Of a stretch of 36,542 nt of DNA, positions 753 through 36,542 are shown piece after piece. The DNA is taken from contig DATIET010000249.1 in NCBI GenBank assembly GCA_035455615.1, positions 1 to 36,542 of the forward strand. Direction: 5' to 3'. The stretch comes from Thermodesulfobacteriota bacterium (lineage in GTDB: Bacteria > Desulfobacterota_D > UBA1144 > Nemesobacterales > UBA2774). The notes beneath the pieces are model-generated. The model did no database searches and was not told the DNA's origin. It saw only the letters and a list, made by a program, of their open reading frames with translations. Positions within the stretch are counted from its first letter, which is position 1. Each line of letters opens with the position of its first letter. The translations under genes and the position numbers were made by a program.

Positions 753-1619
753 TTATACGCCGTCCCTGGTGTAGGATTCGATATTCTCGGGCCCGTATGT
801 CTTGATCCTGTTCTTCCACCCGGGGAGGAATTTTTTCTCATTCCTTTCGGGAGGGGAATTCCGGACACGCCTCTCGAGCACCGACTCCGCTGACCGGGCG
901 AACTCGCTCAGGGCCGCGGGTCCCACCTCATCCCCCTTCATGTTATCGAGCACCTGGAGTAAGCCCCATCCCTGCCCTTTGTACCGTTCCTTGAGCGACG
1001 TGCCTTCACCCTTGAAATTCACGTAATCAACGAGCACGTAAAAACCCATCGGAGTGCCTGACACACGGTAGAACTGTTTTCTGATATTGTCCCTCGACCC
1101 GGCTGGGGCCGACTCCAGCATCATCGGCAGGCTATTCTCCATCCGCTCCGCCATGTAGAGGGACTGGAGCGCGACGGTGTCGAGCATGAATTTTCTGAGA
1201 GATACCATGCGGGGGGAATCGAAGTCGCCGTAAAACTCGCTCCTTGAGCCCCACGGCAGGTCGAACGGGGCGATCCCGTCCATCCATTCCGGGACCGGAG
1301 CGCCCTTCGATTTGATGAATTCGAAGAGTGAGGGGAACGATTCGCGGAAGGGGTATTCTTTTCCTTCCGGGTACCAGAGAAAATGTCCTATACCCAGCGA
1401 AGCGAATTCTTCGCCTTCGTTCCAGGCAGTCAGGTTCTCGGTCTTCCCCCCGCACTCGTTCCTGAATATGAGAGAACCGATCTTCTCGAGCTCCCCGGGC
1501 GGGACCGTCGCGCACGCCGAATCGCACGAGGGGAGGAGCGCCAGGCATAGCGCAAGCGCTGCAGCTCCTGCGAGAGAGTAACCAAGGCATACGTACCGGC
1601 CGGAGAACCGTTTGATCAT
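753..1619 (-). CDS. hypothetical secreted protein or lipoprotein
   Basis: The ORF runs 753-1643. I start it at ATG 1619 (MIKRFSGRYVCLGYSLAGAAALALCLALLPSC), giving a signal peptide with a lipobox-like LLPSC. I recognise no confident family. Confidence 0.6.
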   Translation of the reverse strand: MIKRFSGRYVCLGYSLAGAAALALCLALLPSCDSACATVPPGELEKIGSLIFRNECGGKTENLTAWNEGEEFASLGIGHFLWYPEGKEYPFRESFPSLFEFIKSKGAPVPEWMDGIAPFDLPWGSRSEFYGDFDSPRMVSLRKFMLDTVALQSLYMAERMENSLPMMLESAPAGSRDNIRKQFYRVSGTPMGFYVLVDYVNFKGEGTSLKERYKGQGWGLLQVLDNMKGDEVGPAALSEFARSAESVLERRVRNSPPERNEKKFLPGWKNRIKTYGPENIESYTRDGV

Positions 1620-1718
1620 GTTATGCCGTTCTGCGATGAACAATTATACCGGACGCGGCAGGCGCATTCTTATAGAGGCGGGAATTCTTTCCTGAGCGTC
1701 GAAACTATACTCCTGTAT

Positions 1719-5675: not shown

Positions 5676-5704
5676 TTGATTACAATATATAATGGTGATA
5701 TTAT
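5676..5704 (+). promoter_or_regulatory. putative sigma-70 promoter (TTGATT-17-TATTAT) driving the riboswitch leader
   Basis: -35 TTGATT at 5676-5681, a 17-nt spacer, -10 TATTAT at 5699-5704. The predicted +1 lies about 10 nt before the aptamer. Confidence 0.4.
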
Positions 5705-5721
5705 TTGCATATACAAAGTAA

Positions 5722-5822
5722 GGTCCTCATCCGAAAAGGCAAACCATCTGAAAAGGTGGGACGCAAAACCCGAGACCTAAGGGCTTAAAATGGCCTAAGG
5801 TAGACTGGTTACCGAAGTAGGG
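5722..5822 (+). promoter_or_regulatory. c-di-GMP-I (GEMM-I) riboswitch aptamer
   Basis: GGCAAACC (5738-5745). Hairpin CCATCT-GAAA-AGGTGG (5744-5759) with a GNRA loop. GACGCAAAACC (5760-5770). CCTAAG receptor-like element (5776-5781). GGTTACCGAAG (5807-5817). These match the conserved GEMM-I blocks as recalled from the Vc2 RNA. Confidence 0.75.
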
Positions 5823-5824
5823 AC

Positions 5825-5855
5825 GAGTGTGCGGATACGTCGCAACTCCTTTTTT
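5825..5855 (+). terminator. intrinsic terminator (riboswitch expression platform)
   Basis: GAGT(G)TGCG (5825-5833) pairs with CGCAACTC (5841-5848): 8 bp, one bulge, a 7-nt loop. It is followed by CTTTTTT (5849-5855) and sits 40 nt before the ORF start. Confidence 0.55.
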
Positions 5856-5894
5856 AGCCTCGGATAAAGGGACTGAAACGGGGGGTTTTATGCA

Positions 5895-7526
5895 ATGGGC
5901 GAGTATCTGAAATTCCTGATAATTGCCTTATTCACTATCTTCTCCGCATATAATTCGACGGGCGCGGAACTGACCACCGTTAAAGTAGCGGGGGGTTTCT
6001 CCGAGCCCCTCTACCTGACGTCCCCCGCGGGTGATACGAACCGCCTCTTCATAGTCGAACAGAGCTCGGCGACAATCAAGATAATAAAGAACGGAATCGT
6101 ACTCGCCGCGCCATTTTTAAATATCGACCCCAAGGTCGGAAGCGGCGGCGAAGGCGGCCTCCTCGGACTCGCGTTTCACCCGAATTATGCGTCAAACGGT
6201 TATTTCTACGTCAACTATACGGACAACTCCGGAGACACTGTCATCGCCCGCTACAAGGTTTCCGCAAACCCGGACGTCGCGGACCCGTCGAGCGAGCTGA
6301 TCGTGATGACCGTCGACCAGCCCTTTTCGAACCACAACGGAGGCATGCTCGCGTTCAGTCCGAACGACGACCACCTGTACATCGGCCTCGGGGACGGAGG
6401 GAGTTCTTTTGATCCGGGTAACAGGGCGCAGGACGGCGATACAGAGCTCGGGAAGATGCTGAGAATCGACGTCGGAAACGGAAATACGTTCACAGCCGCC
6501 GCGAACAACCCCTTCGACGACGACCCCGATTTCCTCGACACGATTTGGGCGCTGGGTTTTAGAAATCCGTGGCGGTTCAGCTTCGACAGGTTGAACGGCG
6601 ACCTCTACGTCGGGGACGTAGGACAGGGGGCGAAGGAGGAAATAAGCTTCCAGCCGGGGAACAGTCAGGGCGGGGAGAACTACGGCTGGCGGTGCATGGA
6701 AGGAAAAGACTGTACGGGCCTTTCCGGATGCACTTGCAATTCACCCGCTCTTACCATTCCACTACACGATTACACTCATTCCGGGGGGAATTGCTCCATA
6801 ACCGGAGGATATGTGTACAGGGGAGCGGCGATACCCGACCTGGACGGGACGTATTTCTTCGCCGATTTCTGTACGGGAAAGATATGGTCCTTCGTCAGGA
6901 GCGGCAGCACCGTATCCCAATTCACGGACCGTACTGCTGAGCTCAAGCCGATTACCGGAGAGACCATCAACAATATCTCGTCATTCGGCGAGGACGATAA
7001 GGGGGAGTTGTACATAGTCGACAGGGACGGGGAGATTTTCAAGATCGTGGACAAGAACTCAGTACCTCAACCCACGCCGGTTCCCACGCCCGTTCCCACA
7101 CCGGCGCCGACTCCTATACCTACCGCGCCCCCTTCAGCAAACGCTACCCTTTCCTCATTTAATCCGGGAACAGCCGGCGTCAGGAACTCCCTGACTGTTA
7201 CAGGGGCTCAGCGAGGGTCGATCGTCAGGTTCTACTATTCAAGGACCAACGGGACGACGACTATTTCATCCGGCGTATGCAGAGGGAAAGCCCTTAATAT
7301 GAGGTCGCCGGTCTCTCTCGGTTCCGCCGTCGCGGATTCGACAGGGAAAGCCACCATAAACGTCAGTCTGTCACGGAGTCTGGGCGGAAGGAAGCTTTAC
7401 GTGCAATCGAGAGTTGAGAGCTCGACCGCCTGCAAGATCACGAACCGCGTAACCCAAACAATCAAGCGAAGCTCTGGGGGCTTCGGCGGGGGCGGAGGAG
7501 GGTTCTTTTTCCCGTTTTTCAGATGA
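5895..7526 (+). CDS. secreted PQQ-dependent sugar (glucose/sorbosone) dehydrogenase-like beta-propeller protein with a Pro/Thr linker and a C-terminal beta-domain
   Basis: 543 aa. Signal peptide MGEYLKFLIIALFTIFSAYNSTGA. GSDH-family blocks GLLGLAFHP, SNHNGGMLAFSPND, LYIGLGDGG, GFRNPWRFSFD, GENYGWRCMEG. PT-rich linker PQPTPVPTPVPTPAPTPIPTAPP. Confidence 0.85.
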   Translation: MGEYLKFLIIALFTIFSAYNSTGAELTTVKVAGGFSEPLYLTSPAGDTNRLFIVEQSSATIKIIKNGIVLAAPFLNIDPKVGSGGEGGLLGLAFHPNYASNGYFYVNYTDNSGDTVIARYKVSANPDVADPSSELIVMTVDQPFSNHNGGMLAFSPNDDHLYIGLGDGGSSFDPGNRAQDGDTELGKMLRIDVGNGNTFTAAANNPFDDDPDFLDTIWALGFRNPWRFSFDRLNGDLYVGDVGQGAKEEISFQPGNSQGGENYGWRCMEGKDCTGLSGCTCNSPALTIPLHDYTHSGGNCSITGGYVYRGAAIPDLDGTYFFADFCTGKIWSFVRSGSTVSQFTDRTAELKPITGETINNISSFGEDDKGELYIVDRDGEIFKIVDKNSVPQPTPVPTPVPTPAPTPIPTAPPSANATLSSFNPGTAGVRNSLTVTGAQRGSIVRFYYSRTNGTTTISSGVCRGKALNMRSPVSLGSAVADSTGKATINVSLSRSLGGRKLYVQSRVESSTACKITNRVTQTIKRSSGGFGGGGGGFFFPFFR

Positions 7527-7679: not shown

Positions 7680-10761
<3,082 letters not shown>

Positions 10762-23736: not shown

Positions 23737-24657
23737 ATGAAAAAAGTAACCATCGCCCTCATACAAAGCAAGGTCTCGGAAGACGCCCGGTCGAACGTCT
23801 CAAGGACTATAGAGAGGATAGGCGAGGCGGCCGGGAAAGGGGCCGGGATCATCGCCCTTCAGGAGCTCTTCCAGACGCCTTATTTCCCGCAGTGGGAGAA
23901 GAAGGAGAAGGACGACTACGCCGAAAGCGCCGCGGGCTATACCGTGAGCGAGATGAGGAAGGCGGCCAAGAAATTCGGTGTGACGCTCGTCGTGCCGTTT
24001 TACGAAAAAAAGGGCGGGAAATATTTCAATACGGCTGTCGTGATAGGGAAAGACGGGAAGCTCCTCGGCCGGTATAACAAGATACACATCCCCCAGGACC
24101 CGGGATTTTACGAAAAGGAGTATTTTGAAGAGGGCCGGTCGGGGTACACGGTATTCAAGTCAGGCGGCGTAAAATTCGCCGTCCTCATATGCTACGACCA
24201 GTGGTTTCCCGAGGCCGCGCGCATGGCGCGCCTAAAAGGCGCCCAGATAATCTTCTATCCGACCGCCATAGGGAACATCACCGGCTACGACGCGGAGGGG
24301 GACTGGCACGACGCCTGGGAGACCGTACAGAGGGGACACGCGATCTCGAACAGCCTCTACGTGGCTGCCGTCAACCGGGTCGGACGCGAAGGCAGGATGG
24401 TATTCTGGGGACAGTCCTTCATATGCGATCCGTTTGGACGGGTATTGAAGCGCGCTTCAGCTACCAAGGAAGAAGCCATAATATTGACGCTCGACCTCGA
24501 GCGGAACGAATTTTATTCGGAAGGTTGGGGGTTCCTCCGCAACCGGAGGCCGGATACGTACAAAAAGCTTACCTCTTCCAAGCTGGTTAAGGAATCTAAA
24601 AAATTAAAAGACGTAGAGCATTATAAAGCTATGAAGAAAGCGCTCCGTCAGAAATAG
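23737..24657 (+). CDS. aguB: N-carbamoylputrescine amidase (CN-hydrolase family)
   Basis: E-K-C triad contexts LQELFQTPYF, YNKIHIP and ICYDQWFPEAAR, then IIFYPTAIG. Block-wise similar to AguB as I recall it. It has an extra Lys-rich C-terminal tail. Confidence 0.85.
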   Translation: MKKVTIALIQSKVSEDARSNVSRTIERIGEAAGKGAGIIALQELFQTPYFPQWEKKEKDDYAESAAGYTVSEMRKAAKKFGVTLVVPFYEKKGGKYFNTAVVIGKDGKLLGRYNKIHIPQDPGFYEKEYFEEGRSGYTVFKSGGVKFAVLICYDQWFPEAARMARLKGAQIIFYPTAIGNITGYDAEGDWHDAWETVQRGHAISNSLYVAAVNRVGREGRMVFWGQSFICDPFGRVLKRASATKEEAIILTLDLERNEFYSEGWGFLRNRRPDTYKKLTSSKLVKESKKLKDVEHYKAMKKALRQK

Positions 24658-24667
24658 TCCGCAGTTT

Positions 24668-25699
24668 ATGAGAAGCGAAAACAAGAAGTCATACAGAATG
24701 CCCGCCGAATGGGAGCCGCACTCGGCCATATGGCTCGCCTGGCCATACGACGAGGTCACCTTTCCCGCCAGGGTGGAAAAAGCTGAAGCCGCATTCGTAA
24801 AGATCCTGGGCGCGATACATATGAGCGAGCGGGCGGAGCTCCTCGTATTGGACGAAGAGATGAAGGAAAGGGCGTACGGGATGCTGGCCGCGGCGGACAT
24901 AGATATGCGGAGGATACATTTCCACGTCACCGATTACGCGGACGTGTGGTTGAGGGACACGGGGCCGATTTTCGTCAAAGACGGGTCGGGAAAGACGGTG
25001 ATTACGAAATGGCCCTTCAATGCATGGGGCAACAAGTTTCCTGAATTATTGAAGGATTCCGCCATCCCCGATAAAATCAGGGAGTGGAAGAAATTACACG
25101 TCGAAAGGCCCGGGATCATTATCGAAGGGGGCGCAATCGACGTGAACGGCCAGGGAGTGTGCCTCACAACCGAGCAGTGCCTGCTCAACGAGAACCGGAA
25201 CCCGGGGAAGACTAAAGCGGACATAGAAAAGTATCTCGAAGTATACCTCGGTATAAGAAAAACAGTCTGGCTCAAGGAAGGACTCGTCAACGACCATACC
25301 GACGGGCATATCGACGAGCTCGCCCGTTTCGTCGCCCCCGGAAAGATTGTCTCCGCATATGAAGACGACCCTGGAGACGAGAACTACCTGATACTCCAGG
25401 CTAATTATAAAACCCTAACCGAGGCGACCGATACCAATGGAAAACCCTTCGACGTCGTCAAGCTGCCCATGCCCCACGTGCGCTACGATGACGGGCAGAA
25501 GGCCCCCGTTTCCTACACTAACTTTTATATAGGCAACACGGTAGTCCTCGCGGCTACTTTCAACGACGAGAACGACAGAGAGGCCCTCGAAATCCTGAGA
25601 GATTGTTTCCCCGGACGCGAAATCACGGGCATCGACTGCAGCGACATAATATACGGGGGCGGCGCACTGCACTGCATGACGCAGCAGGAGCCGGAATGA
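24668..25699 (+). CDS. aguA: agmatine deiminase
   Basis: YRMPAEWEPHSAIWLAWP, WLRDTGPIF, DGHIDE and the C-terminal catalytic GGGALHCMTQQEP. Confidence 0.9.
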   Translation: MRSENKKSYRMPAEWEPHSAIWLAWPYDEVTFPARVEKAEAAFVKILGAIHMSERAELLVLDEEMKERAYGMLAAADIDMRRIHFHVTDYADVWLRDTGPIFVKDGSGKTVITKWPFNAWGNKFPELLKDSAIPDKIREWKKLHVERPGIIIEGGAIDVNGQGVCLTTEQCLLNENRNPGKTKADIEKYLEVYLGIRKTVWLKEGLVNDHTDGHIDELARFVAPGKIVSAYEDDPGDENYLILQANYKTLTEATDTNGKPFDVVKLPMPHVRYDDGQKAPVSYTNFYIGNTVVLAATFNDENDREALEILRDCFPGREITGIDCSDIIYGGGALHCMTQQEPE

Positions 25700-25734
25700 A
25701 TTTTGATTCTGTACAATTAAGCTAGGTATGAATT

Positions 25735-25762
25735 TTGACAAGGATACGCAGGGCTATAAAAT
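25735..25762 (+). promoter_or_regulatory. putative promoter (TTGACA-16-TAAAAT) for the DHS-like gene
   Basis: A consensus -35 at 25735-25740 and -10 TAAAAT at 25757-25762. This implies a leader of about 140 nt. Confidence 0.4.
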
Positions 25763-25821
25763 ATTCACGGGTCATCAGAATTCGAACGATAAAAGTTTAT
25801 TACCGAAAGAAAAAACAGATT

Positions 25822-25891
25822 CCGTCCCGAGCCGCTTGATAATCCCCGATTGATGCATATATACGGGGGTATCCATCTCGATCCGGGACGG
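25822..25891 (+). promoter_or_regulatory. two-tier stem-loop in the 5' leader, abutting the SD of the DHS-like gene
   Basis: The outer 8-bp helix CCGTCCCG (25822-25829) / CGGGACGG (25884-25891) encloses a 10-bp helix, 25838-25848 / 25864-25873, with one bulge and one G-U. The SD AAGGAG starts 3 nt after the outer helix. Confidence 0.45.
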
Positions 25892-25908
25892 TAAAGGAGA
25901 AACAGCAA

Positions 25909-26937
25909 ATGGCAAAGACAAAAACCACAAAAAAAGAGCTGCTGAAACAGCCGATCAAGCACGTCGATATAAAGAAGATCGACGGCAGGCAGATCATCGA
26001 CGCCTACCGAGGCATGTCATTCTCTTCGAGGGACACGGCGAGGGCGGCTGACATATTCAACATGAACCTCGCCGACAAGAACGCCTCCGTGTGGCTGACG
26101 CTCGCGGGCTCAACCTCAGCCGGGGGCTGCATGCAGGTGTACGTGGACATGGTGAAGCACAACATGGTGGACGTCATCGTGGCGACAGGGGCTTCAATCG
26201 TGGATATGGACTTTTTCGAGGCCCTCGGATACAAGCACTACGCGGGCACACCTCACATCGACGACGGCATGCTCAGGTCCCTCTACATCGACCGCATCTA
26301 CGATACGTTCATAGACGAAGAAGACCTCCAGGCGTGCGACAGGACCGTAGCCAAGATAGCGGACACGCTCGAGAGGAGGCCCTATTCGTCCCGGGAATTT
26401 ATATGGGAGATGGGGAAATGGCTGACCAGGCACGCGAAGAAGAAAGATTCCCTCGTACAGGCGGCGTTTGAGCACAACGTGCCTATATTCTGCCCGGCGT
26501 TTACGGACTCTTCGGCAGGGTTTGGCATGGTGTTCCATCAATGGAACAACCCCGATTCGCACGTGTCGATAGACAGCGCCAAGGATTTCCTCGAGCTCAC
26601 GAAGATAAAGATCTCGTCCAGGGAGAGCGGCCTCTTCATGGTCGGCGGAGGCGTGCCCAAGAACTTCGCCCAGGACACCGTCGTCGCGGCTGAGGTGCTC
26701 GGCTTCGACGTGCCGGTGCATAAATACGCCGTACAGATCACGGTCGCAGACGTGAGGGACGGCGCGTGCAGCTCTTCCACGCTAAAGGAAGCCTCATCGT
26801 GGGGCAAGGTCAGCACCGTCTATGAGCAGATGGTCTACGCGGAAGCTACGACGGTAGTCCCGTTAATAGTAGCCAACGCCTACCAGACCGGGAAATGGAA
26901 GCAGAGGAAACCCAGAAGCTTCGCCAAAATGTTCTGA
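25909..26937 (+). CDS. deoxyhypusine synthase-like protein (possible homospermidine synthase)
   Basis: 342 aa. DHS-family blocks LTLAGSTSAGG, DVIVATGASIVDMDF and GGGVPKNF, plus the lysine-bearing KEASSWGKVS near the C-terminus. Confidence 0.88.
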   Translation: MAKTKTTKKELLKQPIKHVDIKKIDGRQIIDAYRGMSFSSRDTARAADIFNMNLADKNASVWLTLAGSTSAGGCMQVYVDMVKHNMVDVIVATGASIVDMDFFEALGYKHYAGTPHIDDGMLRSLYIDRIYDTFIDEEDLQACDRTVAKIADTLERRPYSSREFIWEMGKWLTRHAKKKDSLVQAAFEHNVPIFCPAFTDSSAGFGMVFHQWNNPDSHVSIDSAKDFLELTKIKISSRESGLFMVGGGVPKNFAQDTVVAAEVLGFDVPVHKYAVQITVADVRDGACSSSTLKEASSWGKVSTVYEQMVYAEATTVVPLIVANAYQTGKWKQRKPRSFAKMF

Positions 26938-26977: not shown

Positions 26978-27712
26978 CTAAAGCCAGGGAGCGGCGGCCT
27001 TATCTACATACCATTCGAGGACACCGTCAGCAGGGTGAACCATGGACGCCGGATAAGGCAGGGGTCGTGATCCCTTGTTCAATATCTCTTTCAGAACGGT
27101 CTCTTTTTCACTGCCTGCGACCAGGAACGAGACCCTGTCGGCGTTGTCTATAACAGGGAACGTGATGCTCACCCTCTTCTGCCCCGTCTGGGGATGCGTG
27201 GCGACGACGCAAATCTTCTCCTTCTCTTTCAATGTCGGGGCTCCGGGGAATAAGGAAGCCGTGTGCCCGTCCTCACCCATTCCGAGGAGAATCCAGTCAA
27301 AACGCGGGAAGCCGCTCCCGCCTGCGGGGACATTGTCTTTTATCTCCTTCGCGTATCGTACCGCCTCTTCATCGGGAGGGTTCTCACCCAATACGCGGCG
27401 GATATTGGCTTCGGGAATATTTACATGGGATAGGAGCGAGAGTTTCGTCATCTTGAAATTGCTCTCGTCGTTGTCAGGCGGGACGCATCGTTCGTCGCCC
27501 CAGAAAAAAACTACCTTGTCCCAGGGCAGGCCGTCACGATAGGGGGGCGAAGCGAGAACCTCGAAAAAGGCCTTCGGTGTGTGCCCTCCCGAAAGCGCAA
27601 CGATCAGGGACTCACCCGATGCCGCCTTCTCTGCGAGGGCTTTTCTGAAATCCGCGGCAAGGCGGTTCGCCAGTGCTGTAATATCGTCGAAGAGGTATAT
27701 TTCCTTTTTCAT
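26978..27712 (-). CDS. pgl: 6-phosphogluconolactonase
   Basis: LSGGHTPKAFFEVL, FFWGDERCVP and LGMGEDGHTASLFP motifs. AGGAGA lies 4 nt before the ATG. Confidence 0.9.
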   Translation of the reverse strand: MKKEIYLFDDITALANRLAADFRKALAEKAASGESLIVALSGGHTPKAFFEVLASPPYRDGLPWDKVVFFWGDERCVPPDNDESNFKMTKLSLLSHVNIPEANIRRVLGENPPDEEAVRYAKEIKDNVPAGGSGFPRFDWILLGMGEDGHTASLFPGAPTLKEKEKICVVATHPQTGQKRVSITFPVIDNADRVSFLVAGSEKETVLKEILNKGSRPLPYPASMVHPADGVLEWYVDKAAAPWL

Positions 27713-27755
27713 CTCGTCTCCTGCGTTTCGTGGGCCGAGAAATACCCGGCACTAC

Positions 27756-29294
27756 TTATTTAAGCTCGTAAAAATCCCCGTCAGTCGTCAGATGATCGGT
27801 CGGATACCTCCAGTCCTCCTCGGGGGAGTCGAATATGTGTCTGGCTTCCGGGGGTCCCCATGTGCCGACAGGGTATCCGTAAAGCTTGACCTCGGGGTCG
27901 TCCTCCCACGCCTTGAGGATAGGGTCGACGAACTTCCAGCAGGCCTCCACAGCGTCGGCGCGGGCGTAATGAGTGGCGTCGCCGGTGATGCAGTCGAGTA
28001 TCAGGCGCTCGTAGGCCTCCGGAATGTAGGCGTCCGCGAGCTCGGAATAGTGGAAGTCCATTCCGACCTCCTCGATATCGAACCCGGCGCCCGGCTTCTT
28101 CATCCCGAACCTGAGGAGTATCCCCTCGTCGGGCTGTATGCGTATGATGAGCTGGTTCGGTTTTGCGGAGCACAGCTCCTCCTGCGTGAAGAGGTGATGC
28201 GGGGTCTTCTTGAATTCGATCACGACCTCGCTCACGCGGGCGGGGAGGCATTTTCCGGTGCGGAGGTAAAAGGGCACGCCGCCCCACCTCCAGTTGTCTA
28301 TATACAGTTTAAGCGCAACGAAGGTCTCGGTCATCGAATCGTGAGCGACGTCCTTCTCCTGCCTGTATCCGATCACCTTTTTGCCGTTGATCACGGAATC
28401 CGTGTACTGACCCCTTACGGCGAACTTGTCCACATCGGCTGGCTTTATGGGTCTCAGCGACTGGAATATCTTGATGGATTCGTTACGGACGTCTATCGCG
28501 TCGAAGAAGGACGGAGGCTCTATGGTAACCGTGCCGAGGACTTGAAGCAGGTGATTCTGGATCATGTCCCTGAGCGCGCCGTAGTGGTCGTAGTAACCGC
28601 CCCGCTCCTCGACTCCGATAGTTTCGGCGGCCGTAATCTCGACGCGGCTCACGTAATTCCTGTTCCAGAGCGGCTCGAAGATGCCGTTCGAGAACCTGAG
28701 CGCGAAGATGTCCTGCACCGTCTCCTTGCCCAAATAATGGTCTATCCTGTAAATCTGGTCTTCTTTAAATATCCTCTGGAGGTCGTGGTTTAATTCCTGA
28801 GCGGACTCGAGGTCCCTGCCGAACGGCTTCTCTATGATGATGCGTCTCCAGGAGGAGTCCTTCCCCTCCTTCGCTAACCCTTTCTTGCCGAGATTCTTTG
28901 CGATAGCGGTGTAGAGGCTGGGCGAAGTGGACAGGTAGAAAATATAGTTGCCGCCTGTTTTCTCGGCACTGTCGACCGTGGAAAGCTTATCCTTGAGGTC
29001 GTCGTAGTGGCTAACGTCAGTCGCGTCCATGGCGAGGTAGTAAACGTGCTTCGAGAACGGCTCCAGCTGTTTCTGTTCTGATTTTTTGATGCCCGCATAC
29101 GTTACCACGTCTTCGATAATCTTCTTCCTGTACGCGTCGTCCGTGAACGGCGAACGGCTCGTGCCCAGTATTGCGAAATTCTTGGGAAGGAGACCCTGTC
29201 TGAATAACGCATAGAGCGCTGGCATGAGCTTCCGTTTGGTCAAATCACCGGATGCCCCGAATATCGCGATTATACAGCCGTTGTCCTGTGCCAT
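27756..29294 (-). CDS. zwf: glucose-6-phosphate 1-dehydrogenase
   Basis: FGASGDLTKRKL dinucleotide motif, the RIDHYLGKE active-site signature, and IIEKPFG. Confidence 0.95.
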   Translation of the reverse strand: MAQDNGCIIAIFGASGDLTKRKLMPALYALFRQGLLPKNFAILGTSRSPFTDDAYRKKIIEDVVTYAGIKKSEQKQLEPFSKHVYYLAMDATDVSHYDDLKDKLSTVDSAEKTGGNYIFYLSTSPSLYTAIAKNLGKKGLAKEGKDSSWRRIIIEKPFGRDLESAQELNHDLQRIFKEDQIYRIDHYLGKETVQDIFALRFSNGIFEPLWNRNYVSRVEITAAETIGVEERGGYYDHYGALRDMIQNHLLQVLGTVTIEPPSFFDAIDVRNESIKIFQSLRPIKPADVDKFAVRGQYTDSVINGKKVIGYRQEKDVAHDSMTETFVALKLYIDNWRWGGVPFYLRTGKCLPARVSEVVIEFKKTPHHLFTQEELCSAKPNQLIIRIQPDEGILLRFGMKKPGAGFDIEEVGMDFHYSELADAYIPEAYERLILDCITGDATHYARADAVEACWKFVDPILKAWEDDPEVKLYGYPVGTWGPPEARHIFDSPEEDWRYPTDHLTTDGDFYELK

Positions 29295-29373
29295 ATTGTT
29301 TACCCCTCGATCTTATTTGTATTTGTCGTTCTTTATATATATTCCAACGCTCGAATCGTACCCCCTGCGTGTC

Positions 29374-30030
29374 TTACCGTACACTGTCGAGGAGGGCTTT
29401 TACGTTATCCCGCACGCTGGCTTTATCGTTGTATACGCTCGAGCCGGCTACGAGCACCGTCGCCCCCGCCCGCACCACTTCCGGGGCCGTCTCGGTGTCT
29501 ATACCGCCGTCGAGCCCGATCGGGACATCGAGTCCCTTCCGGTCGAGCATCTCTTTTATTGCGCGTATCTTGCCCAACTGGCTCCATATGAATTTCTGTC
29601 CGCCGAAGCCGGGATTGACGCCCATTACCTGGACGAAGTCGGCAAGCTCGAGCACCTCCCCGATCGCGGATGGAGGGGTTCCGGGATTGAGTGTAACGCC
29701 CGACTGTATGCCGAGCTCCCTTATAGACTCGAGCACGCGGTGGAGGTGGTAACAGACCTCCTGATGGACGATGATGCGGTCAGCCCCCGATTCGGCGAAT
29801 AACTTTATATACTTCTCGGGCTCGACGATCATGAGGTGGACGTCGAGCTTCAATTTCGTAAGCGACCTGATAGCCGCCACCACACCAGGTCCGAAGATTA
29901 TGTTAGGGACGAAGCGCCCGTCCATCACGTCTATCTGTATCCAGGTCGCGCCCGCTCCCTCGGCCTCTCTCACGGCCTCGCCGAGCTTCGTAAAATCTGC
30001 TGATAAGATTGAAGGTTCGATTATCGTCAT
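29374..30030 (-). CDS. rpe: ribulose-phosphate 3-epimerase
   Basis: PSILSADF, IQIDVMDGRFVPN, HLMIV and MGVNPGFGGQKF blocks. Confidence 0.95.
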   Translation of the reverse strand: MTIIEPSILSADFTKLGEAVREAEGAGATWIQIDVMDGRFVPNIIFGPGVVAAIRSLTKLKLDVHLMIVEPEKYIKLFAESGADRIIVHQEVCYHLHRVLESIRELGIQSGVTLNPGTPPSAIGEVLELADFVQVMGVNPGFGGQKFIWSQLGKIRAIKEMLDRKGLDVPIGLDGGIDTETAPEVVRAGATVLVAGSSVYNDKASVRDNVKALLDSVR

Positions 30031-30061
30031 GATATTCGTGTATATCGGTACCGACCGATCG

Positions 30062-30787
30062 TTATGAGTCCTTACGCTTCTGGTAACGTATGCCGTGCGA
30101 AGTCGCGACTATTACCTCGCTTGCCGTGCCGATGAAAAGACCGTATCCCGCTATCCCCGCCTTCTGCCCTAACTTTACAGCCAATTCGCCGAGGTCGGGG
30201 ATGGGGCCGAACCTGCAGTCAATTATATAGTTACTCTGATCGGTGGCGTACGGGGCTCCGTCCTCATTCATACGCAGTACGGGCTCGCCCCCGAGGGATC
30301 TGAGGAAATTCGCAACCGGCTTCCATGCGAAGGGTATTACTTCGACCGGGACCGGGCAGTGCGTGCCGAGCATAGGCGATAGCTTGCTCTCGTCGACTAT
30401 CATGACGTTCCGCCTGCTCGACTGGGCGAGGACCTTCTCCCTCAGGAGCGCTCCCCCGCCGCCCTTTATGAGATTGAGGTCGGGATCGACCTCGTCTGCG
30501 CCGTCTATGGTAAGGTCTATCTCCTGTTTGTCGTCAAAAGAAATCACCGGTATGCCGAGCTCTCTCGCCGTTCTTTCCGTCTCTAGCGAGCTGGGTATGC
30601 CCGCGATGTCGCTGAGCCTCCCGTCCTTAAGTCTCCGGGCTATCTCTTCGAGCGCGTATTTGGCCGTGCTCCCCGTACCGAGACCGAGCACCATCCCCGG
30701 ACGCACAAGGTCTACCGCGCTTATTCCGGCTTCCTTCTTCAGCCTGTCCTGAAGCTTCTTCTGATCCGGGGACGGAGAACCGCTCAA
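30062..30787 (-). CDS. rpiA: ribose-5-phosphate isomerase A
   Basis: VLGLGTGSTAKYALEEI, IDGADEVD and LIKGGGGALLREK blocks. TTG start at 30787 with AAGGAGA 8 nt upstream; it overlaps the HAD gene's stop. Confidence 0.9.
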   Translation of the reverse strand: MSGSPSPDQKKLQDRLKKEAGISAVDLVRPGMVLGLGTGSTAKYALEEIARRLKDGRLSDIAGIPSSLETERTARELGIPVISFDDKQEIDLTIDGADEVDPDLNLIKGGGGALLREKVLAQSSRRNVMIVDESKLSPMLGTHCPVPVEVIPFAWKPVANFLRSLGGEPVLRMNEDGAPYATDQSNYIIDCRFGPIPDLGELAVKLGQKAGIAGYGLFIGTASEVIVATSHGIRYQKRKDS

Positions 30788-31539
30788 CCTGTTTTCTCCT
30801 TCTCGGAATTAAGCTCGCTTATAAAACCCTTCGCGGTCTCAAGAAGCACGGGAGGGGTATCGATCACGCGCAGGTTCCTTGCCGGGGGGATTTTATGGAC
30901 CCCTTCCCTCGTAAAATCGGTCGTCACCGCTATACAATTCATGCTCGCGGCGAGAGCGGCCTCGACGCCAGACGCAGAATCCTCGATGACGAGGCATTCG
31001 GTATGAGTCACCTTGAGCTCACCGGCCAGAAGGTTATATATCTCGGGATCGGGCTTCCCGTGCTCGACGTCCTGTATCGTCGCTATGAAATCGAACTCGG
31101 ACCTGATACCCAGCACGTCGAGGACACGGTCGGCCTCCTTTCTGTGGGACATAGTCCCGAGTCCGGTCGGATAGCCCTCACCCCGCGCCCATTTAAGGAG
31201 CCCCAGATTATACGGACACAGATGAGATTTTAGTATTTTGGGGTCGGATATCATCTTAAAATACGTGTCGAGCCTGATGTCCACGTAGGCCTGCCAGGGG
31301 GTGTGGACATGGAATTCCTTCATCCTCGCCCGTGCCGCGTTTTCGAGATTAAACCTCTTGAGCAGCCCTTCCGCGACCTCTTTACGCGACAGCCCCACAA
31401 AGTCCTTGAAACCGTCTATGACCTCGTCTTCGGTAAGCGAATTATCGAGCTCGACCGCGGCCCTGGCGTAAGACTCCGCCTTCAGTACCTCGGTCTGCAC
31501 GAGTGTGCCGTCGAGATCGAATATAAGCGCTTTAATCAC
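30784..31539 (-). CDS. HAD-IA family sugar-phosphate phosphatase / beta-phosphoglucomutase-like hydrolase
   Basis: HAD motifs I FDLDGTLVQTE, III HGKPDPEIY and IV IEDSASGVEAA. The start is either GTG 31539 (GGAAGGGA upstream) or TTG 31554, which overlaps the tal-pgi stop. Confidence 0.8.
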   Translation of the reverse strand: MIKALIFDLDGTLVQTEVLKAESYARAAVELDNSLTEDEVIDGFKDFVGLSRKEVAEGLLKRFNLENAARARMKEFHVHTPWQAYVDIRLDTYFKMISDPKILKSHLCPYNLGLLKWARGEGYPTGLGTMSHRKEADRVLDVLGIRSEFDFIATIQDVEHGKPDPEIYNLLAGELKVTHTECLVIEDSASGVEAALAASMNCIAVTTDFTREGVHKIPPARNLRVIDTPPVLLETAKGFISELNSEKEKTG

Positions 31540-31550
31540 TGTCCCTTCCG

Positions 31551-34376
31551 TCAAAGTATTTTCGCCAGCCTGTTAATACCGCGTACAACGTTTTCACCCA
31601 GATGGAACGTAATGACCTTGCGCTTCCGGTCTAGCAGCGCCTGGCGGTCGCCGAGCGCCTCGGCGTCTTTAAATACGCCGAAGGTTATGGACGAGGCCTT
31701 CTTGCCCGGCTCGTCCGGGATCGGTATATCGACGGGCATATCGGACGTGAACTGAATGAAGAGACCGTGCCCCGCGTCTCCCTTATGGAGCTGCCCTGTT
31801 GAATGGAGGAACCTCGGACCGAACCCTACGGTCGTGGCCAGTCGGTACTGCCTCTCCACCTTGGTCCGGAGCTTCTGGAGAGCGTTATACGTCTCGTCCG
31901 ATGGCTTGACAAAGGCCTGGAACGCGACGTAGCTCCTTCCCTTCGATTCGTCCCTGCCTGGTTTGGCGAAGGAGAGGAACTTCGTAAGCGCCTGCTCGAG
32001 GCTCCCGGCTTTAAAATCGGAATAGACCGTTATTTCCGACTCTCTGAGGGTCGGCTTTACGACCGGCAGCTTACCTTTTTTCTGGTACTCGGCTATCATC
32101 TTGCGCGCGAGCACCTTGGCAGCCTCCACGTTCGGCTGGTTGAAGGGGTGAATGCCGATTATCATGCCGGCGACGGCGATAGCCATCTCCCACCTGAAGA
32201 ACTCGCCCCCCAGGTCGTAGATATCCCTGAGATTGATACGCACCACCGGATAGTCCGCTTTCTCAAGGGCATTCACCTGCCTGTCGTACGTGTCGTCATT
32301 TAAGAGGCGGAGGTAAACGAAGAGCCTGTCGTTCGCATAGAATTCCGGCTGCGCCAGAGGCTCCCTGTCGACGGGGAGGATGCCCTTCCCGTCCTTACCG
32401 GTGCTCTCGGCTATCAGCTGCTCGACCCAGGAGCCGAAGCCTGCTATCGGCGGGGAAGCGACGAGTGTGACTTTATCGCGCCCTGCCCTGGCAAGCTCCC
32501 CGAGTATCGCCCCCAGCCAGGCGCCCGAATTGTCCCCGTCAACGGCGCAGTTGCAGCTTTCGCAGTTGTGGAGCATGGTGACGGCGCGGGCGAGCAGCGT
32601 GTCGAGGTCAACACCCTGGAAAGCTGCGGGTGGTATCCCTACGAACGAGAGGGCGGAGTATCGTCCGCCGATATTGGGATCGTTTAAGAACGTTTTTCTG
32701 AATTTAAGCCCCGCTGCGATCTTCTGGAGACCGCTCCCGGGGTCCGTAATGGCAATGAAGTGCCGTCCCGCATCTTTCTTGCCGACTTCCTTCAAAACCT
32801 CGTTGTAGAAGTATTTCATGAACGACATGGTCTCCGCCGTGCCCCCCGATTTGGTGGAGACGATGAAGAGCGTCTTCGACATATCGAGGCGGTCCCTCTG
32901 TTCGAGCACGGCCCCGGGGTCCGTGCTGTCGAGCACCGCCACGTCGAGATAGCCCTTTTTGACGCCGAAGGTCTCGCGTATAACCAGAGGGGCGAGACTC
33001 GAACCGCCCATTCCCATGAGAAGCACGTTCTTATAACCGTCGGCCTTTACATCGGCGACCACTTTTTTTATACCCGGAAGGGCGTCAACCATTACTTCCG
33101 GTATGTGGAGCCATCCGAGACGGTTGCTTATCTCGGTCGGGTCGTCTTCCCAGACCATGTAATCGAAGTTCCAGATCTTTTGTATGATATTGTTGTCACG
33201 CATGTTCTCAAGCGCCTTGTCGACCGCGGCCTGGTACTTTCCGAGTGAGGCGGAATAGGGCTTTTTCTGGGACTGTATCTGCACCTTCTTTTGCTCTATG
33301 CTCGCCATGAGTGTCCTGAAGGAATCGGCGAACTGGTCTACCCCGTCCCTGAGCAGCTTGTTCGTCACCGACTTTAAATTTATGCCGAGCTTCCCAAGCT
33401 TTTCTACGTCCTGTCTCGCCTGATTTACGCCCCTCGTGATCGTGAGAGCGACCTTCCCGTGATCCCTGAAGTTCTTGTATGTGGCAGGCGGTACCGTGTT
33501 TACGGTATCCGGCCCTATGAGCTCGTCGACGTAGAGCGTATCGGGATAAGCCGGGTTTTTCGTGCTGGTGCTCGCCCAGAGGCATCTCTGCACCCTAGCC
33601 CCCGCGTCCGAGAGCTTCTTCCAGCGCTTGCCTTTGAATATCCTCCTGAATTCGTCGTACGCGAGCTTCGCGTTCGCAATCGCGATCTTCCCCTGAAGCG
33701 CGGTGTTACCGATCTTCTCGAGCTCGGGGTCGATGGCGGTATCCACACGGCTTACGAAAAATGAAGCTACGGAGGCCACCCTGTCCACCCGGTGTCCCTT
33801 GAATACGGAGGGGCCTTCGGCTGCAAGTTTTTCGAGACCCTTTATATACGCCTCGGCCACGGCTTTATACTGATCGAGGCTGAACATCAGTGTTACGTTC
33901 ACGTTGATACCGGCCCCAATGAGCTCAGTGATGGCAGGGATGCCGGCTTTGGTCGCGGGGACCTTGATCATGACGTTCGGGCGCCCTAGAGTGACGAAAT
34001 ACCTCCTGGCTTCCCTGATAGTGCCGTTCGTATCGTTAGCCAGGGTCGGGCTCACCTCGAGACTTATGAACCCGTCGCCGCCGTTCGTTTTATCGTAGAG
34101 CGGCCTGAAAAGGTCGGCGGCCATCGCGATGTCCTTCAAGGCGAGCGCCTCGTATATCTCGTCTGCGGATTTATTCTGCTCCACCAGGGACTTCAACTCT
34201 TCATCGTAATCGGAGCTCCCGGCTATGGCTTTTTCGAGTATCGAGGGGTTCGAGGTTTCGCCCCTCAGTCCTTCGTCTATGAGGGCATTGAGCTCCCCCG
34301 AGGTCAAGAAGGACCTCCTTATATAATCGTACCAGATCGACTGGCCGAGCTTGGATAAATCCGTTATTCTGGACAT
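31551..34376 (-). CDS. bifunctional transaldolase / glucose-6-phosphate isomerase fusion
   Basis: 941 aa. The N-terminal ~360 aa look like transaldolase (SIWYDYIRR, GETSNPSILEKAI, VMIKVPAT). The C-terminal ~570 aa look like PGI (MGMGGSSLAP, STKSGGTAET, IGGRYSALS). Confidence 0.9.
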   Translation of the reverse strand: MSRITDLSKLGQSIWYDYIRRSFLTSGELNALIDEGLRGETSNPSILEKAIAGSSDYDEELKSLVEQNKSADEIYEALALKDIAMAADLFRPLYDKTNGGDGFISLEVSPTLANDTNGTIREARRYFVTLGRPNVMIKVPATKAGIPAITELIGAGINVNVTLMFSLDQYKAVAEAYIKGLEKLAAEGPSVFKGHRVDRVASVASFFVSRVDTAIDPELEKIGNTALQGKIAIANAKLAYDEFRRIFKGKRWKKLSDAGARVQRCLWASTSTKNPAYPDTLYVDELIGPDTVNTVPPATYKNFRDHGKVALTITRGVNQARQDVEKLGKLGINLKSVTNKLLRDGVDQFADSFRTLMASIEQKKVQIQSQKKPYSASLGKYQAAVDKALENMRDNNIIQKIWNFDYMVWEDDPTEISNRLGWLHIPEVMVDALPGIKKVVADVKADGYKNVLLMGMGGSSLAPLVIRETFGVKKGYLDVAVLDSTDPGAVLEQRDRLDMSKTLFIVSTKSGGTAETMSFMKYFYNEVLKEVGKKDAGRHFIAITDPGSGLQKIAAGLKFRKTFLNDPNIGGRYSALSFVGIPPAAFQGVDLDTLLARAVTMLHNCESCNCAVDGDNSGAWLGAILGELARAGRDKVTLVASPPIAGFGSWVEQLIAESTGKDGKGILPVDREPLAQPEFYANDRLFVYLRLLNDDTYDRQVNALEKADYPVVRINLRDIYDLGGEFFRWEMAIAVAGMIIGIHPFNQPNVEAAKVLARKMIAEYQKKGKLPVVKPTLRESEITVYSDFKAGSLEQALTKFLSFAKPGRDESKGRSYVAFQAFVKPSDETYNALQKLRTKVERQYRLATTVGFGPRFLHSTGQLHKGDAGHGLFIQFTSDMPVDIPIPDEPGKKASSITFGVFKDAEALGDRQALLDRKRKVITFHLGENVVRGINRLAKIL

Positions 34377-34446
34377 TGTCTATCTCCCGTTCATCGTGTT
34401 ATTCGTTCCATAAAAACGGAGCGTGACAGCGAACCTTAAATCTACA

Positions 34447-36507
34447 TTATTTTTTTGACGGCTTTTTAACCTTCTTGTTATTCAGCTTAAGGACTTCGTT
34501 CGCCTTTGCGACGACGTGATCGACTGTGAACCCGAACTCAGGCAGGAGGTCCGCTATGGGAGCCGATTCGCCGAACGTGTTTATGCCTATCGAGCCGCCC
34601 CCGTTGTCGGAGCCCACGTACCTGCACCAGCCGAACGTGGAGCCCATCTCCACAGACACCCTGGCCTTTACGGACGACGGCAGGACTTCTTCCTTGTAAT
34701 CCGCCGTCTGCATTTCGAAGAGAGACCATGAGGGTATGCTGACTACGCGCGCCTTGATCCCCTGCTTTTTCAGTATCTCGTATGCGCCCAGGCATAGCTG
34801 GACTTCAGAACCCGTGCCGATCAATATGACGTCAGGCCCGGGCTTGCTGTCGGCGAGAATATATGCGCCCTTTAAAGCGCCTTCGGCCGGGGCGTACAAG
34901 TGTCTATCGAAAGTGGGGACGTCCTGCCTCGTCAGTATCAGGGCTACAGGATGGTCTTTCGAACCCATTATATATTTCCACAACACACTTAATTCGTTAG
35001 CGTCGGCGGGCCTTACGACAGCGAGGTTGGGCATGGCTCTCAAAGACGCGAGGTGCTCGACGGGCTGGTGCGTGGGTCCGTCCTCGCCGAGACCAATACT
35101 GTCGTGAGTGAATATGAAAGTCACGGGGATCTGCATCAGGCTCGCGAGCCTGATCGTGGCCCTCATGTAGTCGGAAAATACGAAATACGTGGCCGTATAA
35201 GGCCGGAGCTTACTGAGCGCCATACCGTTCGCGACAGCTCCCATCGCGTTTTCTCTTATGCCGAAATGAAAGTTCCTGCCGTCGTATATCCCTTTCTCGA
35301 AGCTGGTAGCTCCATCAATGTATGTCTTCGTCGAAGAGCCGACATCAGCCGCGCCCCCCAGGAGGAACGGGTACACGGGGACTATGGCGTTCAGTATCTT
35401 GCTGTTGGCGGAGCGTGTCGCGGGCCCCTTCGGGTTCGGGGGGAACACCGGGAGGCATTTCTCCCACCCTTCGGGCATCTCCCTGTCCCGAAGCTCACGG
35501 AACTGCTTCGCCAGATCGGGATAGTCGCGCTCGTAGGCGCTTAATTTCTTATTCCATTCGTCCTCAAAGACGGCGCCTTTCCTGATAACGGTCTCCCTGT
35601 ATTCCTTCACCTCTTCGGGCACGTAGAATTTCTTGTCGGGGTCCCAGCCGTAATTTATCTTGGTCTTCCGTATCTCCTCGTCGCCGAGGGGCTCGCCGTG
35701 AGCCGCTGACGTGTCCTGTTTGTTGGGGCTCCCGTATCCGATGTGGCTGTCTACTATGATGAGAGACGGCTGCTCGTTCTCCTTGAACGCCCTTTCTATC
35801 GCCTCGGCCAGCATCTCGAGGTCGTTTGCGTCTCCGACACGCTGTACGTGCCAGTTGTATCCCATGAACCGGGCCGCCACGTCCTCGCTGAAAGCGAGCG
35901 CGGTGTGCCCTTCTATTGTTATGTGGTTGTTGTCGTAGAACCAGATGAGGTTGTTCAAGCCGAGGTGTCCCGCAAGCGAGGCAGCCTCGCCCGATATCCC
36001 CTCCATCATGCACCCGTCGCCGCAGATTGCGTAAATATTGTAGTTGATAATTTCGTGGCCCGGTTTGTTGAAGTATGCCGCGAGCCATTTCTCCGCGATC
36101 GCCATGCCGACCGACGTCGCGACTCCCTGGCCGAGTGGCCCCGTCGTAGTCTCTACCCCCGGTGCAAGGCCGTATTCCGGGTGGCCGGCGCACTTGCTGT
36201 GTAGCTGCCTGAACGTTTTTATATCGTGAAGAGATAGGTCGTAGCCGGTAATATGGAGGAGACTGTAGAGGAGCATCGATGCGTGGCCGTTCGAGAGCAC
36301 GAACCGGTCGCGGTTGGGCCAGTCGGGATTCTTGGGATTGAATTTCATGAACTTGTCCCAGATGGTGAACGCCACGGGGGCGAGCGCCATCGGCGTGCCC
36401 GGATGACCCGAATTCGCCTTTTGCACCGCGTCCATCGACAGGGTCCTTATGGTGTTTATTATCAGTTGCTCCAGTTTGTCTCTGCTCATCTTGGGTTTCG
36501 ACTCCAT
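34447..36507 (-). CDS. tkt: transketolase
   Basis: SGHPGTPMALAP and ICGDGCMMEGISGEA (ThDP motif), FGIRE, THDSIGLGEDGPTHQP. ATG 36507 has GGAGA 7 nt upstream; the ORF extends to 36522. Confidence 0.95.
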   Translation of the reverse strand: MESKPKMSRDKLEQLIINTIRTLSMDAVQKANSGHPGTPMALAPVAFTIWDKFMKFNPKNPDWPNRDRFVLSNGHASMLLYSLLHITGYDLSLHDIKTFRQLHSKCAGHPEYGLAPGVETTTGPLGQGVATSVGMAIAEKWLAAYFNKPGHEIINYNIYAICGDGCMMEGISGEAASLAGHLGLNNLIWFYDNNHITIEGHTALAFSEDVAARFMGYNWHVQRVGDANDLEMLAEAIERAFKENEQPSLIIVDSHIGYGSPNKQDTSAAHGEPLGDEEIRKTKINYGWDPDKKFYVPEEVKEYRETVIRKGAVFEDEWNKKLSAYERDYPDLAKQFRELRDREMPEGWEKCLPVFPPNPKGPATRSANSKILNAIVPVYPFLLGGAADVGSSTKTYIDGATSFEKGIYDGRNFHFGIRENAMGAVANGMALSKLRPYTATYFVFSDYMRATIRLASLMQIPVTFIFTHDSIGLGEDGPTHQPVEHLASLRAMPNLAVVRPADANELSVLWKYIMGSKDHPVALILTRQDVPTFDRHLYAPAEGALKGAYILADSKPGPDVILIGTGSEVQLCLGAYEILKKQGIKARVVSIPSWSLFEMQTADYKEEVLPSSVKARVSVEMGSTFGWCRYVGSDNGGGSIGINTFGESAPIADLLPEFGFTVDHVVAKANEVLKLNNKKVKKPSKK

Positions 36508-36542
36508 ATCGTTTCTCCTCATTTATAATTTTGAGAACTATT

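Follow-up and report, generated by a model that had tools for sequence, protein, structure and literature searches.

The DNA analysed here, called the window below, is a 36.5-kb stretch (36,542 nucleotides) from Candidatus Dadabacteria (Thermodesulfobacteriota), an uncultivated lineage. A gap of 358 nucleotides lies between a divergent YhdH-like zinc alcohol dehydrogenase (ADH) gene (4535 to ~5536, minus strand) and an open reading frame (ORF) that starts at 5895 on the plus strand. The gap carries a promoter, a class-I cyclic di-GMP (c-di-GMP-I, GEMM-I) aptamer, a terminator-like hairpin and a Shine-Dalgarno (SD) sequence. The ORF (5895-7526, plus strand) is a monocistronic gene of 543 amino acids and encodes a beta-propeller protein resembling Glucose/Sorbosone dehydrogenase (GSDH) and Hedgehog-interacting protein (HHIP). 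Judged from the family search and from the comparison with orthologous leaders, the RNA element is almost certainly a genuine class-I c-di-GMP riboswitch and a member of RF01051.

The GEMM-I aptamer and its conservation

An earlier note on this DNA had recognised a GEMM-I aptamer by eye. The search with the Rfam model RF01051 (c-di-GMP-I) aligned the same blocks and returned 72.8 bits, far above the gathering score of 35, over model positions 1-87 of 87. The E-value was 1.3e-12 when the whole window was searched and 2.6e-14 in the local search, and RF01051 was the sole Rfam family above threshold in the 36.5 kb. Two further matches were attributed to chance. CRISPR-DR31, at 5838-5879 on the minus strand, reached 18.6 bits against a gathering score of 35 (E 0.38) and had no repeat array, and an RT-2 match in the gap scored 14.9 bits, far below threshold.

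The aptamer extends over 5728-5816 (plus strand, as do all leader elements given below) and is supported by the RF01051 match and by covariation in 15 orthologs. It comprises the P1b hairpin CCAUCU-GAAA-AGGUGG (5744-5759), capped by a GAAA tetraloop of the GNRA type that was invariant in 15 of 15 orthologs; the GACGCAAA junction (5760-5767), which carries A5765; the P2 helix (5767-5810) with its CCUAAG receptor (5776-5781); and the UUACCG strand (5809-5814). All sequence features listed in the earlier note were present at or near the places where it had put them.

The covariance model (CM) alignment placed G5738 on model position 11, the unpaired G before two G-C pairs, which corresponds to G20 of the Vibrio cholerae Vc2 RNA. 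A5765, the first A after the closing GC, is the equivalent of A47, and C5812, the first C of the consensus gCCgaa, is the equivalent of C92. G20 contacts the Hoogsteen edge of one ligand guanine (G-alpha), and C92 forms a Watson-Crick pair with the other (G-beta) (PMC6140456, PMC11218506). A47 intercalates, and the same two papers name positions 20, 47 and 92. The G at the first position and the C at the last were found in all 15 leaders, namely the window and 14 further assemblies. Because the G20, A47 and C92 positions are canonical, the predicted ligand is c-di-GMP and not 3'3'-cyclic GMP-AMP (3'3'-cGAMP). The GEMM-Ib riboswitches, which respond to 3'3'-cGAMP, have an A at position 20 (PMC6140456), and a GEMM-Ib assignment was ruled out because this position is a G in the window and in all orthologs. 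The earlier note had equated G5738 with G20, preferred c-di-GMP over cGAMP and pointed to the C retained after UUA; the CM alignment agrees on each of these.

The second helix was the part that could not be folded by eye, because the window has non-canonical combinations at two central pairs of the Rfam P2 consensus. The same two pairs (columns 54/86 and 55/85) were unpaired in 11-14 of the 15 orthologs. The flanking P2 pairs were intact and covarying. On this alignment, P2 of the clade has an internal loop at the two central consensus pairs, and the mismatch is not a failure of the model.

The same arrangement of promoter, aptamer and gene was found in 15 loci, with the aptamer located 68-82 nucleotides before the start codon. 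The nearest relatives of the downstream protein come from metagenome-assembled genomes labelled Candidatus Dadabacteria or Thermodesulfobacteriota, with amino acid identities of 94% (L001), 87% (L002) and 84% (L003). RF01051 was detected upstream of the ortholog in L001-L005 with 48-76 bits, and in nine more loci (L161-L169), obtained through exact-protein look-ups, with 46-70 bits.

In the CM-guided alignment of the 15 aptamers with their outer P1 helix, 85% of the pair cells were canonical, against 28-52% when the 3' partners were slid. Double-sided changes occurred in 8 pairs (23 cells), a level reached by 0 of 500 shuffles; the 15 sequences are related, and this count is not a probability. 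Three of the covarying pairs belong to P1b and three to P2, and the double changes are spread over P1b, P2 and the P2 tip. Within this alignment, the slid control and the spread of double changes match the expectation for a real conserved fold.

Beyond these loci the aptamer was not recovered. Two more remote orthologs with conserved synteny and 55-57% protein identity (L170 and L171) have a short intergenic region, and the aptamer is absent from it. The non-Dadabacteria GSDH homologs (~150 loci) yielded no aptamer either with Rfam, which was run on L006-L020, or with a CM derived from the clade, which was run on L007-L160; the best score of the latter was 17 bits (E 0.06), and a CM built from a single clade could miss very divergent aptamers. 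A metagenome scan returned no close relatives. The Rfam and clade CM scans ruled out the riboswitch as a general feature of GSDH homologs, and across the loci scanned the link between riboswitch and GSDH gene is restricted to Dadabacteria-type orthologs.

Upstream of the aptamer, the TTGATT-17-TATTAT promoter proposed in the earlier note was found as a sigma-70-type element with an extended -10, comprising the -35 box TTGATT (5676-5681), a 17-nucleotide spacer, TG (5696-5697) and the -10 box TATTAT (5699-5704). The promoter scan alone was weak, with 2 such sites in 500 nucleotides against 0.8 expected. Conservation was more informative: TTG, the 17-nucleotide spacer and TGnTAT(T/G)(A/C)T were kept in 15 of 15 leaders, each time equally far from the aptamer, and the surroundings diverge. 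From this promoter, transcription would start near 5711 and give a leader of ~184 nucleotides.

The secreted GSDH/HHIP-like protein and its neighbourhood

The gene downstream of the riboswitch had been described in the earlier note as coding for a secreted protein, and the N-terminus of the 543-residue ORF resembles a Sec-type signal peptide, as inferred from its sequence. The GSDH beta-propeller (PF07995) was identified with an E-value of 2e-40, and the NHNGG motif of the family was invariant among the orthologs. The nearest solved structures were the propeller of the vertebrate Hedgehog-interacting protein (E 8e-26) and soluble glucose dehydrogenases dependent on pyrroloquinoline quinone (PQQ) (E 1e-11 to 1e-14). 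The protein is sugar-dehydrogenase-like in sequence and has a GSDH/HHIP-like propeller, and a role as a PQQ enzyme is putative.

The C-terminal part (7047-7526) consists of a Pro/Thr linker, a domain of ~100 residues with two conserved Cys, and a Gly-rich tail GGFGGGGGGFFFPFFR ending in FFR. A Pfam search of the C-terminal 159 residues gave nothing meaningful. In the orthologs P0019, P0021 and P0025, the Gly-rich tail grows to about 60 residues of GGxGG repeats. In place of the tail, the relatives P0048 and P0041, which lack the riboswitch, have the C-terminal domain in duplicate.

For two orthologs, P0012 (565 amino acids) and P0014 (609 amino acids), the public gene calls begin upstream of or within the riboswitch, located at L162:1112-1276 and L163:1254-1417. 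Because these calls span the riboswitch, the predicted N-termini of both proteins are translated leader RNA. Their real starts align with MGEYLKFL of the window protein, which gives a length of about 540 residues. Recognising the RNA therefore corrects protein models, since public gene calls cross the aptamer in at least two assemblies.

The order ADH(-), GSDH(+), thiC(-) was kept in all riboswitch-bearing orthologous loci. The regulated gene was considered monocistronic because this synteny is conserved and thiC is convergent downstream. A Pfam scan of 28 large ORFs judged plausibly coding found no GGDEF, EAL, HD-GYP or PilZ domain, in line with the statement of the earlier note that the window has no GGDEF, EAL or HD-GYP gene. 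These 28 were taken from 53 ORFs of at least 150 amino acids, and the remaining ones overlap them. The neighbours within the window are housekeeping genes: amt, thiC, tsaD, an ABC exporter, a sugar-nucleotide pair, a MarR regulator, a sigma factor, ispH, polyamine genes and a pentose-phosphate cluster.

Some neighbours deserve a separate description. The thiC ORF (7680-10049, minus strand) was listed at 789 amino acids; because its orthologs have only 627-635, the true start would be near 9581. No thiamine pyrophosphate (TPP) riboswitch was found before thiC, and in the stretch 9350-10100 the ~110-nucleotide thiC-tsaD intergenic region gave no Rfam match at E<=1. A thiC gene without a TPP riboswitch is unusual. 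The pentose-phosphate cluster is contiguous and on a single strand (26978-36522, minus strand), and it codes for 6-phosphogluconolactonase, glucose-6-P dehydrogenase, ribulose-P 3-epimerase, ribose-5-P isomerase A, a HAD phosphatase, transketolase and a 941-residue fusion of transaldolase and phosphoglucose isomerase. A polyamine-type trio at 23737-26937 (plus strand) comprises a CN-hydrolase resembling N-carbamoylputrescine amidase, a PAD_porph protein of the agmatine-deiminase type and a deoxyhypusine-synthase-like protein. Finally, a 296-residue ORF with a TTG start (753-1643, minus strand) had no Pfam match at E<=1e-3.

Control elements between the aptamer and the start codon

The P1 helix that closes the aptamer is formed by segment a, the P1 5' strand GUCCUCAUCCGA (5723-5734; given as GGUCCUCAUCCGA for its complementarity to a''), and by segment a', the P1 3' strand CGAAGUAGGGAC (5813-5824), in a duplex of -7.9 kcal/mol. 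Its outer part pairs GUCCU with GGGAC (5820-5824); over the 15 sequences the outer P1 pairs were 83% paired, and GUCC/GGAC was nearly invariant. Further downstream, the SD GGGGGG (5880-5885), whose G-run was invariant in the leader alignment, precedes the ATG start codon (5895-5897). The C/U-rich stretch at 5846-5862 contains the candidate anti-SD segments CUCC (5846-5849) and CCUCG (5858-5862), which can pair with GGGGGG and, together with 5869-5884, form a hairpin of -14.6 kcal/mol. CCUCG was invariant in the first six leaders, and a C-rich run was found at that position in 15 of 15. A third segment, a'' (UCGGAU-AAA-GGGACU, 5860-5874), overlaps the anti-SD and is an alternative partner of the P1 5' strand. 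In the ~78 nucleotides past the aptamer, the conserved islands are the GGAC of the P1 3' strand, the CGG and GGAC of a'', the G-run SD and the start codon. The elements conserved in the clade point to control of the ribosome-binding site.

Our preferred reading of this platform is an OFF switch at the level of translation, combined with a terminator specific to the lineage; we give this proposal an even chance. Without ligand, the P1 5' strand would leave its partner at 5813-5824 and pair with the stronger complement at 5860-5874, which overlaps the C-rich anti-SD; this long-range helix would break the anti-SD hairpin and open the ribosome-binding site. Binding of c-di-GMP would lock the pairing of 5723-5734 with 5813-5824, so that P1 closes, GGGGGG becomes paired to the anti-SD and the gene is translationally repressed. 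The hairpin and U-run (5825-5855) that the window and its two nearest relatives have in addition may give premature termination, which may be partly constitutive, in the manner of the dual transcription-translation platforms known from other GEMM-I RNAs. A layout of three elements, in which an aptamer strand serves as anti-anti-SD ahead of an anti-SD and the SD, is the usual OFF design.

Several results are consistent with the translational OFF switch. In the window, a:a'' has 12 base pairs and -16.6 kcal/mol, against -7.9 for a:a', and across the 15 leaders a:a'' ranged from -10 to -19 kcal/mol against -4 to -10.5 for a:a'. The best duplex of the P1 5' strand with the downstream leader was located at an equivalent place in most of the 15, 11-23 nucleotides before the start codon. 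In the ten alignable leaders, a:a'' was 92% canonical against 19-58% when slid, and almost all of its pairs were invariant. The anti-SD of the five most distant leaders, CCCUC, is perfectly complementary to GAGGG, a sequence found there both as the SD and as the P1 3' strand, which makes the P1 3' strand of this subgroup a mimic of the SD. When P1 was forced instead of a:a'', the unpaired probability of the SD fell in 9 of 15 leaders (from 0.56 to 0.05 in the window), rose in 2 and was unchanged in 4. For the whole-leader partition-function comparison, five shorter aptamers were disregarded, as their P2 constraint was mis-mapped (energy differences of 19-31 kcal/mol). A long-range pairing of the junction sequence AAAACCC (5765-5771) with GGGUUUU at the SD, suggested by the minimum free energy (MFE) fold, was rejected since neither L003 nor L004 preserves it.

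Next to P1 lies an intrinsic-terminator-like element (5825-5855), composed of a stem at 5825-5848 with the loop GAUA, C5849 and a U6 run (5850-5855). On folding, the stem had 9 base pairs, two 1-nucleotide bulges and -8.9 kcal/mol, and the terminator scan reported a 5-base-pair core (5830-5844) with a T-run. The earlier note had described an 8-base-pair hairpin followed by CTTTTTT and read it as a classic termination platform. The hairpin comes close to the one found here. Two observations weaken the classic platform: the hairpin with U-run is confined to the window, L001 and L002 (3 of 15 leaders), the other 12 being without a comparable terminator, and in the window the fold is independent of P1. 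In the local fold of the window, the hairpin had -9.5 kcal/mol with the P1 3' strand free, where AGGGA extends the stem onto UCCUU, and -8.9 kcal/mol with the strand blocked. Because the hairpin folds equally in both situations, the sequence gives no clear sign that the ligand controls termination, and across these leaders the terminator as a conserved regulatory element does not hold up well.

These data bear directly on a transcriptional OFF switch, in which c-di-GMP would close P1, block the competitor formed by GACG (5822-5825) and CGUC (5838-5841), and let the terminator at 5825-5855 stop RNA polymerase. The hairpin with its U6 run abuts P1 as such a switch would require, and the GACG/CGUC hairpin was kept in 8 of 10 main-group leaders, with an inner stem that varies among UGU/AUA, AUC/GAU and ACC/GGU. 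The Clostridioides difficile Cd1 RNA is a GEMM-I switch of this terminator-type OFF class (PMC9262584). However, with the U-run and stem in only 3 of 15 leaders, transcriptional control would leave the 12 terminator-less orthologs unexplained. In addition, the competitor of 4-7 base pairs is weaker than the terminator, and with the P1 3' strand unblocked the MFE fold lengthens the terminator and does not disrupt it. We consider this transcriptional OFF switch unlikely.

The translational OFF switch also has results standing against it, some of which would fit the opposite polarity. The support for a:a'' is conservation and not covariation: it showed one double change, which did not exceed the shuffle control, and per-sequence shuffles gave p values of only about 0.02-0.1. 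Isolated compensations were seen: L166 has G-C in place of A-U, and L163 has A-U in place of U-A, a change that an alignment gap conceals. Many alternative pairings score well because the leader is rich in GGA/UCC motifs. In the unconstrained ensembles the SD was mostly sequestered in both states, with no discrimination between them, and the terminator hairpin of the window forms in silico with or without P1. Moreover, forcing P1 left the SD more open in L161 and L004, and the complete terminator stem of L002 (-9.2 kcal/mol) depends on the P1 3' strand: with that strand blocked, only a 5-base-pair hairpin of -4.5 kcal/mol is left; the polarity there would be anti-termination, that is, ON.

An ON switch would accommodate the last two results. 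In such a switch, c-di-GMP would sequester the AGGGA of the P1 3' strand, which would otherwise complete either the lower terminator stem (AGGGA/UCCUU) or a structure that masks the SD, and the secreted protein would be induced. It is also in keeping with the common induction of extracellular and adhesion factors by c-di-GMP, and the pilM-type GEMM RNAs are ON switches (PMC9262584). Against induction, the terminators of the window and L001 are equally stable with the P1 3' strand blocked, and the trend in SD accessibility is opposite in 9 of 15 leaders. The arrangement of P1 5' strand, anti-SD-overlapping a'' and SD is likewise that of an OFF design. On these grounds, an ON response seems improbable to us.

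The independence of the terminator from P1 could also be read as a constitutive terminator in the sublineage of the window. The aptamer would then be released as a small RNA of ~145 nucleotides (5711-5855) with c-di-GMP-responsive stability or activity in trans, and control of the gene would be secondary. A precedent is the Vc2 RNA, for which control over how stable an upstream small RNA is has been reported (Pursley 2019, as cited in PMC11218506). The aptamer, however, always lies 68-82 nucleotides before the start codon of the same gene within a conserved SD/anti-SD context, the terminator is absent from most orthologs, and its stem is modest (-8.9 kcal/mol, two bulges). A small RNA as the main product is accordingly very improbable in our view. 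Taken as a whole, with an identity as a class-I c-di-GMP riboswitch that is almost certain and a translational OFF mechanism that has an even chance, the combined reading is somewhat more likely than not.

Significance and comparison with known GEMM-I systems

The element is a member of a well-known RNA family and ordinary for GEMM-I, and the current understanding of this family is not challenged; the target gene is apparently unreported. Our literature search found no link between GEMM-I and either the GSDH/HHIP-like family or Dadabacteria, and for Dadabacteria together with c-di-GMP only an incidental mention turned up. Through the riboswitch, c-di-GMP signalling in an uncultivated lineage could be read out directly, and its clade-conserved target, a secreted GSDH/HHIP-like beta-propeller, could guide work on c-di-GMP control in Dadabacteria. 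The 15 leaders also form a natural series in which the aptamer is fixed and the platform drifts, with a terminator gained in one sublineage and an anti-SD that shifts place. Such a series would be useful for studying the evolution of riboswitch platforms.

A broader proposal, which we put forward tentatively and regard as rather doubtful, is that the locus belongs to a Dadabacteria-specific GEMM-I regulon. In it, c-di-GMP would directly shut off (or switch on) a secreted HHIP-like/GSDH protein with a Gly-rich C-terminal tail through the three-element translational platform, and the terminator would have been recently grafted in one sublineage. If true, a riboswitch platform would be seen to change its mechanism between closely related lineages, and a family of extracellular sugar-oxidising or surface proteins would gain its first connection to c-di-GMP.

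Among the known systems, the Vibrio cholerae Vc2 RNA resembles the element in its full-length family match, its GAAA tetraloop and receptor, the GACGCAAA junction, the G20/A47/C92 equivalents and its place in the 5' leader of an extracellular-protein gene. Vc2 is reported to repress translation by masking a distant ribosome-binding site (Inuzuka 2018, as cited in PMC11218506). The element differs from Vc2 and the GEMM-I family at large in its Dadabacteria/Thermodesulfobacteriota host, its GSDH/HHIP-like target and the central internal loop that P2 has in this clade.

The Bacillus thuringiensis Bc1 RNA shares with the locus a platform that joins terminator-like hairpins with structures involving the ribosome-binding site, and it exerts dual control of transcription and translation (PMC11218506). 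The Bc1 platform has ~220 nucleotides and two terminators, whereas the one described here has ~78 nucleotides and a single terminator-like hairpin, present in one sublineage only. Cd1 is similar in having a hairpin and U-run directly past the aptamer, and as in Cd1, c-di-GMP would be expected to lower expression (PMC9262584). The terminator of Cd1 competes with an anti-terminator that involves the aptamer; in the window no pairing made a convincing anti-terminator, and the orthologs do not conserve the terminator. Nearly identical GEMM-I aptamers are known to yield either ON or OFF switches (PMC9262584). Finally, the GEMM-Ib RNAs (Geobacter Gs1761, pilM) have the same fold, belong to the same Rfam clan and come from related lineages of the 'delta-proteobacterial' type, but they carry an A at the G20 position (PMC6140456), where the Dadabacteria leaders have a G in 15 of 15.

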